In this document: piece after piece, positions 896-2,833 of the stretch | Position numbering within the stretch: the first letter of the stretch is position 1 | Layout of the letters: the number at the start of each line of letters is the position of its first letter | Virus record (IMG/VR): IMGVR_UViG_2740892231_000004 | DNA length: 14,199 bases | DNA from: a virus | Taxonomy: Duplodnaviria > Heunggongvirae > Uroviricota > Caudoviricetes | Reading direction: 5' to 3' (one strand) | Translations under genes and position numbers: made by a program | The notes under the pieces: generated by a model | The model's database searches: none | Seen by the model: only the letters and a program-made list of their open reading frames with translations | Told to the model about the DNA's origin: nothing

Positions 896-2833
896 GTGAC
901 TCTTAAACGGGCCTGCTCCCTGCTGACGGTGAAATCCTTCAGTGAGGATGAGCGGGTGATCACCGGGATTGCGTCAACGCCTTCTCCGGATCGGGATGGT
1001 GACATCCTGGAGCCGGAGGGCGCGGAGTTTGGCAGTGCGATCCCGTTTCTCTGGCAGCATGACCATTCCCGCCCGGTGGGGCAGTGTACGGTGCGCCGGG
1101 TCAGCGAAGGGCTGGAAATCACGGCAACACTGGCGAAGCCCGTGCCGGATATGCCATCGCAACTGGCTGCCAGGCTGGATGAGGCCTGGGCGGCCATTAA
1201 GACCGGGCTGGTCAGGGGGCTGTCCGTGGGCTTCCGTCCTCATGAATACACCTTTCTGGACGGAGGCGGACTGCATTTTCTGCGCTGGGAGCTGATGGAG
1301 GTGTCTGCCGTCACCGTGCCCGCGAATGCGGAATGCACCATCCGGACCATTAAATCTTACGACCGCCCGTTTTCTGCCGCGTCCGGCAACCGGAAACCGG
1401 TGGTGAAAATCGCATCTTCTGCCGGCGCTGCGGCACAGTCAACAACCGTTTTTCATAAGGAAAAGACCATAATGAATATTGGCGAACAGATTAAAAGTTT
1501 TGAAAACAAGCGTGCAGCACTGGCAGCCTCCCTTGAGGAGGTCATGACCAAAGCCGCAGAGGAAGGGCGCACGCTGGATGTGGAGGAGGAAGAGCATTAC
1601 GACAGCACCGCAGCGGAAATACGTCAGGTGGATGCGCACCTGAAGCGCCTGCGTGAACTGGAAGCCGGTAAGGCCGCCACGGCGCAGCCGGTGAAACAGG
1701 CCGGTAACGGGAATGTGGCCGCGGTGGCTTCTGCGCCGGTGATCCGTGTGGAGCAGAAACTGGATAAGGGGATTGGTTTCGCACGTTTTGCCAAATCGCT
1801 GGCTGCGGCTAAAGGTGTCCGCTCTGAAGCCCTGGAAGTGGCCCGTCGTCAGTATCCGGATGACAGTCGTCTGCATCATGTCCTGAAATCGGCAGTGGGC
1901 GCGGGGACCACCACGGATCCGCAGTGGGCAGGCAGCCTGTCTGAATATCAGGAATACGCACAGGACTTTATTGATTACCTGCGTCCTCAGACCATTATCG
2001 GGCGATTTGGTCAGGGCGGGATCCCTGCACTTCGTCAGGTGCCGTTCAATATCCGTGTGCACGCCCAGGTGTCGGGCGGTGCTGCCGGCTGGGTGGGTGA
2101 GGGTAAGGCAAAACCCCTGACGAAGTTTGATTTTGAATCCATCACCTTCAGTCATGCGAAGGTGTCGGCCATTGCGGTACTGACGGAAGAATTGATCCGT
2201 TTTTCCAGTCCGGCTGCTGATGCACTGGTCCGTAATGCGCTGGCGGAAGCGGTGGTGGCGCGTCTGGATACAGACTTTGTGGACCCGAAAAAAGCGGCGG
2301 TGGCAGATGTCTCCCCGGCGTCCATCACCCATGATGTGAAGGGCACGGCATCAAGCGGTAACCCGGATGCGGATGCAGAGGCGGCGTTTGGACAGTTTGT
2401 GGCAGCAAACCTGCAGCCCACCGGTGCGGTCTGGCTGATGTCCAGCACCAATGCCCTGGCGCTGTCCATGCGTAAAAATGCGCTGGGTCAGAAAGAATAC
2501 CCGGACATGACCCTGCTGGGTGGCTCCTTCCAGGGGCTGCCGGTGATTGTCTCCCAGTACGTGGGTGACCAGCTGGTGCTGGTGAATGCCCCGGATATTT
2601 ATCTGGCGGATGACGGCGGCGTGGCAGTGGATATGTCCCGCGAGGCATCACTGGAAATGCAGTCTGAGCCGACCGGCGACAGTACCACGCCGTCGCCGGT
2701 GGAGCTGGTTTCCATGTTCCAGACAGGCAGCGTGGCCATCCGTGCGGAGCGCTGGATCAACTGGCGTCGTCGCCGTACCGCGGCGGTGGCGGTGATCACA
2801 GGAGTGAACTACGGCAGTGCGTCCGGCGGCTGA
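896..2833 (+). CDS. Prohead protease (HK97 gp4 / peptidase S78-like), scaffold-like delta domain and HK97-fold major capsid protein in one fused ORF, GTG start
   Basis: 645-aa ORF. GTG at 896 sits 5 nt after AGGAGG. The N-terminal ~180 aa match the prohead protease pattern (GIASTPSPDRDGDILEPEGAEF ... GLSVGF ... ELMEVSAVTVPANAEC). A charged coiled-coil-like segment (MNIGEQIKSFENKRAALAASLEEV ...) and a capsid-like C-terminal ~380 aa follow with no intervening stop. Confidence 0.85.
   Translation: MTLKRACSLLTVKSFSEDERVITGIASTPSPDRDGDILEPEGAEFGSAIPFLWQHDHSRPVGQCTVRRVSEGLEITATLAKPVPDMPSQLAARLDEAWAAIKTGLVRGLSVGFRPHEYTFLDGGGLHFLRWELMEVSAVTVPANAECTIRTIKSYDRPFSAASGNRKPVVKIASSAGAAAQSTTVFHKEKTIMNIGEQIKSFENKRAALAASLEEVMTKAAEEGRTLDVEEEEHYDSTAAEIRQVDAHLKRLRELEAGKAATAQPVKQAGNGNVAAVASAPVIRVEQKLDKGIGFARFAKSLAAAKGVRSEALEVARRQYPDDSRLHHVLKSAVGAGTTTDPQWAGSLSEYQEYAQDFIDYLRPQTIIGRFGQGGIPALRQVPFNIRVHAQVSGGAAGWVGEGKAKPLTKFDFESITFSHAKVSAIAVLTEELIRFSSPAADALVRNALAEAVVARLDTDFVDPKKAAVADVSPASITHDVKGTASSGNPDADAEAAFGQFVAANLQPTGAVWLMSSTNALALSMRKNALGQKEYPDMTLLGGSFQGLPVIVSQYVGDQLVLVNAPDIYLADDGGVAVDMSREASLEMQSEPTGDSTTPSPVELVSMFQTGSVAIRAERWINWRRRRTAAVAVITGVNYGSASGG

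Follow-up and report, generated by a model that had tools for sequence, protein, structure and literature searches.

How many proteins are made from a gene in which a prohead protease runs without interruption into a major capsid protein? This question is raised by a stretch of 14,199 nucleotides (hereafter the window) from a tailed phage of the Caudoviricetes, the IMG/VR record IMGVR_UViG_2740892231_000004, where one open reading frame (ORF) at positions 896–2833 of the plus strand carries both parts. The original prediction for this DNA, made from the letters alone, held that the ORF joins a protease, a delta domain and a capsid protein, and that an internal ATG at 1472 could yield a capsid-only product next to the full-length one. 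From the comparison of this gene with its relatives, we consider it very probable that the ORF is a nested gene pair, in which GTG 896 starts the fusion and ATG 1472 a delta-capsid protein, the two products co-assembling and the tethered protease finally removing itself. Judging by its relatives the fusion is real, old and widespread, and it had been known and annotated before; what is new here is the comparative evidence for the internal start.

One Open Reading Frame for Protease and Capsid

The program-made ORF list and the translation give a single ORF of 645 amino acids with a GTG start, whose first stop codon is the one at 2831–2833, which confirms the claim that no stop separates the protease and capsid regions. 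The window contains three scaffold gaps of ten N (3425–3434, 5281–5290 and 5449–5458), none of them within the ORF. Moreover, a gene of 1938 nt with 90–99.7% identity is present in 93 phage records, and 1252 of the 5426 complete Escherichia coli genomes carry it, with up to seven copies per genome. Since the same gene recurs in all these records and genomes, the uninterrupted ORF is no sequencing accident. Phage BP-4795 and the annotation pipeline PGAP both show a single coding sequence with identical coordinates, which PGAP names "phage major capsid protein". Going by these matches, the ORF is the head gene of long-tailed lambdoid Shiga toxin (Stx) phages and O157-type prophages. In this regard, ORF56 of BP-4795, named 'putative major head protein/prohead protease' in its record, and the head genes of Stx phages 2851, YYZ-2008, 1717 and many Stx1a, Stx2a and Stx2c phages are 97–99.7% identical to it at the nucleotide level, with the same coordinates and neighbours (terS, terL, head gene, small ORF, portal). 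No sequence difference sets this group apart from the window; its records give one product and mark the internal start in none.

Beyond this group, orthologues of 644–648 amino acids with 73–77% identity occur in Salmonella, Enterobacter, Klebsiella, Serratia and Pantoea, and fused orthologues reach down to about 34% identity, where the named hosts include alpha- and beta-proteobacteria. After clustering at 50% identity, the best 150 representatives comprise 140 fused proteins (630–690 amino acids) and six capsid-only ones. The PHROG 617 profile ("major head protein", 626 positions) matches residues 1–639 of the ORF with E = 9e-262. The NCBIfam model NF045541 (prohead protease/major capsid protein fusion protein) scored 52.6 bits, far under its cut-off of 525, and describes a fused family other than that of the window. 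Fusions of an S78 protease to a capsid protein have been noted in thaumarchaeal proviruses as well.

The anatomy of the protein was delimited by profile searches and by an AlphaFold model built on a diverse alignment of 30 sequences (mean predicted local distance difference test score, pLDDT, of 78), which superseded a model on 20 close homologues (pLDDT 42) where the capsid part was unfolded. The parts that concern the argument are the following:

896–2833, plus strand: full-length ORF, protease–linker–delta/scaffold–HK97-fold capsid, 645 amino acids, 68.9 kDa (translation, Pfam, NCBIfam, PHROG 617)
896–1357, plus strand: S78 (HK97 gp4-type) prohead serine protease domain, residues 1–154 (PF04586, AlphaFold, invariant residues)
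1358–1471, plus strand: disordered, hypervariable, indel-rich, A-rich linker, residues 155–192 (AlphaFold, alignments, GC content)
1457–1461, plus strand: internal Shine-Dalgarno (SD) sequence AAGGA (sequence; SD core conserved in orthologues)
1472–2833, plus strand: putative nested in-frame ORF for a capsid-only precursor, 453 amino acids, 48.2 kDa (start conservation, split relatives, TIGR01554)
1472–1900, plus strand: delta/scaffolding-like region, residues 193 to about 335, C-terminal limit approximate (AlphaFold, profile alignment)
1901–2830, plus strand: HK97-fold capsid domain, residues about 336–645, N-terminal limit approximate (PF05065, Foldseek)

In the N-terminal part, Pfam finds Peptidase_S78 (PF04586) at residues 48–152 with 33.9 bits against a cut-off of 21, and the AlphaFold model is confident over residues 18–154 approximately; the NCBIfam model TIGR01543 scored 46.8 bits, under its equivalog cut-off of 59. 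Thirty sequences with 36–53% identity to the window protein all keep residues H55, S110, E135 and S137, a pattern that would fit an active S78 protease; we take H55 and S110 to be the catalytic residues by their correspondence with H65 and S114 of HK97 gp4. The pLDDT falls below 50 over residues 155–193, where alignments are poorly conserved and rich in indels. Within this variable linker an AA[ST]G motif is kept at residues 158–165 (nucleotides ~1367–1390) from Enterobacterales to alpha-proteobacterial relatives (loci L003–L035), and it may be regarded as a candidate self-cleavage site that would free the protease from the capsid part.

After the linker, the model shows a helical hairpin at residues 195–262 (helices 195–222 and 229–262), disorder at 264–285 and three short helices within 293–332, followed by an alpha/beta domain that extends to the C-terminus. 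Positions 196–262 of the family profile align with residues 4–70 of the stand-alone capsid protein of EcCI2 (9gyi_B), a capsid-forming phage-inducible chromosomal island (cf-PICI). From this alignment, the hairpin is the delta region found at the N-terminus of ordinary HK97-family capsid proteins, and Met193 the counterpart of residue 1 in a stand-alone one. Phage_capsid (PF05065) is found at residues 386–635 with 52.5 bits (cut-off 24.2), and TIGR01554 with 76.5 bits (cut-off 27.5), the latter match starting at residue 204, which is residue 12 of the nested product. The top Foldseek matches of the model are the capsid proteins of Bxb1, D3 and HK97 (E-values from 1e-13 to 1e-10 over some 270–350 columns). 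The three parts proposed in the original prediction are thus all present, with boundaries that structure prediction sets at residues 18–154 for the protease and 155–193 for the linker, before the helices and the HK97 fold.

An Internal Start Codon Conserved in a Hypervariable Linker

The ATG at 1472–1474 lies in frame with GTG 896 (576 = 3 × 192) and is codon 193, opening the sequence MNIGEQIKSF; the spacer between AAGGA and this ATG is 10 nt. That the pair sits at the boundary of the protease and capsid parts, as had been claimed, is borne out by both the sequence and the AlphaFold model. Met193 is invariant in 20 orthologues with 73–98% identity, next to the most variable and indel-rich part of the protein. 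To follow the site at the DNA level, we gathered 104 fused orthologues from contigs of one genome per species and from IMG/VR, which gave 80 distinct linker sequences; identity to the window protein ranges over 45–99% in the IMG/VR set and goes down to 34% in the genome set, and the named hosts are gamma-, beta- and alpha-proteobacteria. An internal in-frame start codon was found in all 80 (ATG in 75, GTG in four and TTG in one), placed 4–7 codons before a conserved EQI motif in 79 and one codon before it in the remaining sequence (L028), where the alignment is shifted. All 80 also have an SD sequence (AAGGA, GGAGG, AGGAGGG or similar) 5–11 nt upstream of this codon.

A further 12 cluster representatives at 50% identity were chosen because their proteins have valine or leucine in place of the methionine, and their DNA was then fetched: the codon is GTG in 11 and TTG in one, and an SD sequence precedes it in the 12 cases. 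The chance of finding only GTG or TTG in these 12 is about 1e-6, as the product of the GTG/Val or TTG/Leu frequency of each gene. Altogether, start codon and SD sequence are present in the 92 distinct relatives examined, and the 17 codons other than ATG are all GTG or TTG. Moreover, the SD core is not tied to one codon phase, as 37, 28 and 15 sequences have it in the three possible phases, and it lies inside 58 different pentapeptides, which include the pairs KG, KE, EE, QE, RR, KV, TE and ED; the constraint is therefore one on nucleotide rather than peptide sequence. Among the 80 orthologous sequences, the start codon and its SD sequence are the only conserved features of an otherwise hypervariable linker. 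It had been foreseen that a context of ATG 1472 that is not conserved in relatives would count against internal initiation, and the opposite was observed.

The specificity of this signal was assessed with 632 alignment anchors, looking in the ten codons upstream of each for a start codon with an SD sequence. Only the annotated N-terminus and residues 194–202 have both in at least 90% of the sequences; the other anchors have a maximum of 0.80 and a mean of 0.20. The 60 nt around the internal start are also little structured, with a mean minimum free energy (MFE) of −7.1 kcal/mol versus −16.4 kcal/mol for windows of the gene; their median rank is within the least-structured 1.5%, and 65 of the 80 sequences fall in the top 10%. 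The GC content at the internal start is 42% in the orthologue set, versus 58% for the gene, and in the window sequence it is 30% (60 nt around 1472) versus 60%. The boundary after the protease domain thus contains an in-frame, unstructured initiation region, and the gene has no other internal site of this kind. These comparisons show that the internal initiation signals are conserved and under selection. The out-of-frame TAA that overlaps the start in the window (TAATG, 1470–1474) was considered as a stop-start coupling or frameshift signal and discarded, being absent from the relatives. A weak scan of positions 600–3200 for an internal sigma-70 promoter that could make a capsid-only mRNA gave no promoter-like site; such a promoter may be dispensable in a late operon anyway.

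Relatives with Separate Protease and Capsid Genes

Protease and capsid are separate genes in prophages of Snodgrassella alvi, in Burkholderia phages vB_FUBS1 and vB_SBP9, in Moraxella Mcat6 and in Stenotrophomonas SOVA965. The order in these relatives is terL, protease, capsid, small ORF and portal, and it is annotated so in the Snodgrassella, vB_FUBS1 and Mcat6 records. Their capsid genes begin, behind an SD sequence, at the homologous methionine (MTIEEQI, MTIAEKI, MTLAEQI, MKTYAEQI), and in the capsid-only cluster representatives residue 1 aligns to residue 193 of the query. In the alignments, then, codon 193 is homologous to codon 1 of stand-alone capsid genes.

Codon Usage and Signals Flanking the Head Gene

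A difference between the two parts of the ORF is also seen in codon usage. With an Ikemura-type list of optimal E. coli codons, the mean optimal-codon fraction is 0.577 for the capsid part versus 0.476 for the protease part, and the capsid part is the higher one in 53 of 55 distinct, mutually related enterobacterial sequences; the value of the protease part resembles those of terL (0.48) and portal (0.45). This contrast would accord with a heavier translation of the 3′ part of the gene. Three further signals lie on both sides of the ORF:

857–880, plus strand: terminator-like hairpin (stem 857–874) followed by a T-run, downstream of the terL stop (832) and ahead of the head gene's ribosome-binding site
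885–890, plus strand: SD sequence AGGAGG for the full-length product (sequence)
2848–2869, plus strand: GC-rich hairpin directly after the stop codon, with a stem of 9–10 bp and no T-run here (sequence, folding of relatives)

An equivalent of the upstream hairpin and its T-run occurs just before the SD sequence in relatives from Enterobacterales, Proteus and Burkholderiaceae; such a hairpin might act on the late transcript right ahead of the head gene, either attenuating or stabilising it. Of 81 distinct relatives, 96% also have a stable hairpin in the 60 nt that follow the stop (mean MFE −22.7 kcal/mol), which in some carries a T-run, so that conserved hairpins lie on either side of the head gene. 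AGGAGG lies 5 nt from GTG 896, and this GTG, found in the E. coli lineage, overlaps an out-of-frame ATG-TGA start-stop at 894–899, whereas most relatives have a plain ATG in place of the GTG; this arrangement may tune expression of the full-length form. As a sign of low full-length expression, the upstream start codon holds only in part, being GTG in the E. coli lineage and ATG with GGAGG in most relatives.

Comparison with Known Head Maturation Systems

In HK97 the protease and the capsid protein are products of two genes, and the protease is targeted into the prohead non-covalently. The window shares with HK97 gp4 and gp5 the S78 protease family, the fold of the capsid protein and a helical, delta-like N-terminal region of the kind that serves as built-in scaffold. 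It differs in that the protease region runs on into the capsid region with no stop codon between them, and in gene order, which is terL, protease-capsid and portal in the window and portal, protease and capsid in HK97.

A described homologue outside the enterobacterial group is ORF003 of Pseudomonas phage PAJU2 (UniProt P85500, 'capsid polyprotein'), which is 48% identical over 100% of the query and agrees with the window in fused layout and synteny. It is annotated as "prohead protease fused capsid protein", and it has its own internal ATG (M197) behind CAGGAGGG. A literature search found no description of internal initiation for this ORF.

Nested protease/scaffold pairs are established for lambda C/Nu3 and for UL26/UL26.5 of herpes simplex virus 1 (HSV-1), and ribosome profiling has shown another one, gp17/gp17.5, in HFTV1 (bioRxiv 10.64898/2026.09.13.751334). 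As in the window, these systems have an N-terminal protease in a long ORF with an in-frame internal start, and their nested product, which is abundant, has in common with the long one the C-terminal assembly part by which the protease enters the procapsid. In them, however, what is nested is a scaffold destined for removal, and the protease families differ from S78; the nested product of the window would be a capsid protein with a delta scaffold. The nested ORF does not encode a separate scaffolding protein of the lambda type: it comprises the delta region and the HK97-fold capsid, and it therefore represents a variant of the C/Nu3 arrangement, in which internal initiation would yield the capsid protein, given that the scaffold of HK97-type phages is already part of that protein. 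With this modification, the lambda precedent invoked in the original prediction would stand, the in-frame initiation region after the protease domain being present.

Another likeness is found in the tripartite capsid gene of Gifsy-2, as papers citing Effantin et al. (2010) describe it, and in the ClpP-MuT-like fusions of Paracoccus prophages, all of which have a protease, a scaffold-like middle and a capsid part in one ORF. Both have a protease of the ClpP/S14 type, and the Paracoccus capsid domain is of the Mu gpT type, in contrast to S78 and PF05065 in the window. Indeed, Pfam gave no ClpP match in the N-terminal domain, where Peptidase_S78 is found instead, so the ORF does not begin with the ClpP-type (S14/S49) protease that defines Gifsy-2-type fusions. 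No paper on internal initiation in an S78-capsid fusion was found in our literature search, although Effantin et al. (2010), Cheng et al. (2004) and Uchiyama (2009, on PAJU2) might mention one. Neither a preprint on CBASS (an antiphage signalling system) nor the papers on Phage_Finder and on the Paracoccus prophages proved to deal with the family of the head gene.

Proposed Mechanism and Alternative Explanations

The nested gene pair that we favour would work as follows. Initiation at GTG 896 would give the 69-kDa protease-linker-delta-capsid protein, and initiation at ATG 1472, whose own SD sequence lies in A-rich RNA free of structure, a 48-kDa delta-capsid protein that would be the counterpart of HK97 gp5. 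The 68.9-kDa and 48.2-kDa products of this one mRNA would co-assemble into the prohead, since both carry the same assembly-competent capsid part, and each full-length subunit would bring one covalently tethered S78 protease to the interior, the tether standing in for the separate HK97 protease with its own targeting tail. During maturation the protease would then trim away itself, the linker and the delta region. We infer that both products are made, and likewise the tether and cleavage steps; their ratio might be such that each prohead receives a few protease copies and bulk capsid protein, as the original prediction had it. More tentatively, and at somewhat less than even confidence, it can be suggested that throughout the S78 fusion class the number of proteases per prohead is set purely by the ratio of the two initiation sites on a single mRNA, with the tether replacing a targeting peptide and with the hairpins and the upstream start codon (GTG in the Stx lineage, ATG elsewhere) tuning that ratio.

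Several points weigh against the nested pair. The published reading of PAJU2 ORF003, as cited in PMC8306868, is that of a single self-cleaving polyprotein. The upstream SD sequence is strong (AGGAGG here, and in most relatives GGAGG followed by ATG at the homologous position), therefore the full-length form is not obviously minor and need not be rare, and ribosomes elongating from upstream could occlude internal initiation. The internal SD sequence of the window is just AAGGA, with a longish spacer of 10 nt. Besides, the orthologues are related by descent, so the conservation counts are not independent events, and relatedness among the compared sequences, together with the reliance on an Ikemura-type list, also bears on the codon-usage contrast.

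On another reading, every capsid subunit would be a 69-kDa self-cleaving fusion and the internal SD sequence and ATG an unused relic of genes that were once separate. The strong upstream site would suit such a polyprotein, as would the annotation of PAJU2 ORF003 as a fused structural protein, for which autocatalytic cleavage has been proposed according to PMC8306868, and the tripartite gene of Gifsy-2, a published case going by the papers that cite Effantin et al. (2010). Space would not be an obstacle either, as we estimate that a T=7 prohead would have room inside for some 415 copies of an internal part of 30 kDa. A relic, however, is expected to be lost in a linker that has diverged so much, yet start codon and SD sequence were kept in the 92 distinct sequences, the 17 non-ATG cases are GTG or TTG and never another Val, Leu or Ile codon, RNA structure is kept low at the internal site and codon bias differs between the halves of the ORF. 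All this makes a polyprotein alone improbable.

The purine-rich motif and the methionine could also be conserved for something else than initiation, either as an SD-like ribosome pause that aids folding of the protease or as a peptide motif, for instance a protease/delta cleavage site. The site lies exactly at the domain boundary, and the conserved AA[ST]G about 30 residues upstream could be such a cleavage site. A pause, though, does not need a start codon at a fixed distance of 5–11 nt, and a peptide motif would hardly be written in 58 pentapeptides with the SD core in three codon phases, nor with a Met that switches solely to GTG-encoded Val or TTG-encoded Leu; moreover, the split relatives use the homologous codon as a true gene start. 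We regard these roles as quite improbable. As for an error of sequencing or assembly, or a prophage in decay whose protease has lost its stop codon, the window is indeed a scaffolded draft and one of its gaps breaks the portal gene. The head gene itself is free of gaps, and its ORF is intact in the 1252 complete E. coli genomes, in the 93 phage records, which include inducible Stx phages, and, as a fusion, in the 140 of the best 150 cluster representatives, while the record of phage PAJU2 lists the homologue as a structural protein. These counts refute an artefact, whose probability is practically nil; the stop or frameshift that resequencing might have revealed, according to the original prediction, is contradicted by the same genomes.

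Implications of a Probable Nested Head Gene

About one complete E. coli genome in four carries the head gene, many Stx1 and Stx2 phages have it, as do prophages of many proteobacteria, and S78 protease-capsid fusions form a large class of at least 140 clusters at 50% identity. Everywhere the annotation is that of a single product, be it "major capsid protein", "prohead protease" or "capsid polyprotein", for what on the comparative evidence are probably two nested genes. If the internal start is used, a real capsid precursor of 453 amino acids would be missing from all such annotations. Nested translation would also offer a third route to load a maturation protease into the procapsid, tethered to a minority of the capsid subunits, and would bridge assembly of the HK97 type, where the scaffold is fused to the capsid protein, and that of the lambda/herpesvirus type, where the protease is nested with the scaffold. 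In addition, comparison across relatives makes the internal site a clear case of selection on an initiation codon within a gene.

Neighbouring Genes in the Window

The small ORF between the capsid and portal genes (2878–3099, 73 amino acids) overlaps the portal start and belongs to PHROG 829, of unknown function, with no NCBIfam match; a small ORF is found in the same position in PAJU2 and in the Burkholderia and Moraxella phages. The portal gene appears in the window as two ORFs, 3045–3530 and 3568–5310. The flanks of the first gap (3273–3424 and 3436–3588) are near-duplicates of 152 nt with about four mismatches, and the split of the portal in the window is therefore an assembly artefact. 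In public records this gene is split or frameshifted too (ORF58/59 in BP-4795, 'frameshifted' in PGAP). Finally, a tandem repeat of 162 nt (54 amino acids) occupies positions 4735–5280, with at least 3.4 copies and 91% match, and ends at a scaffold gap. It lies in a long C-terminal extension past the Phage_portal domain, and its copy number is probably variable among strains, since portal length differs among the window, BP-4795 and CP027368.

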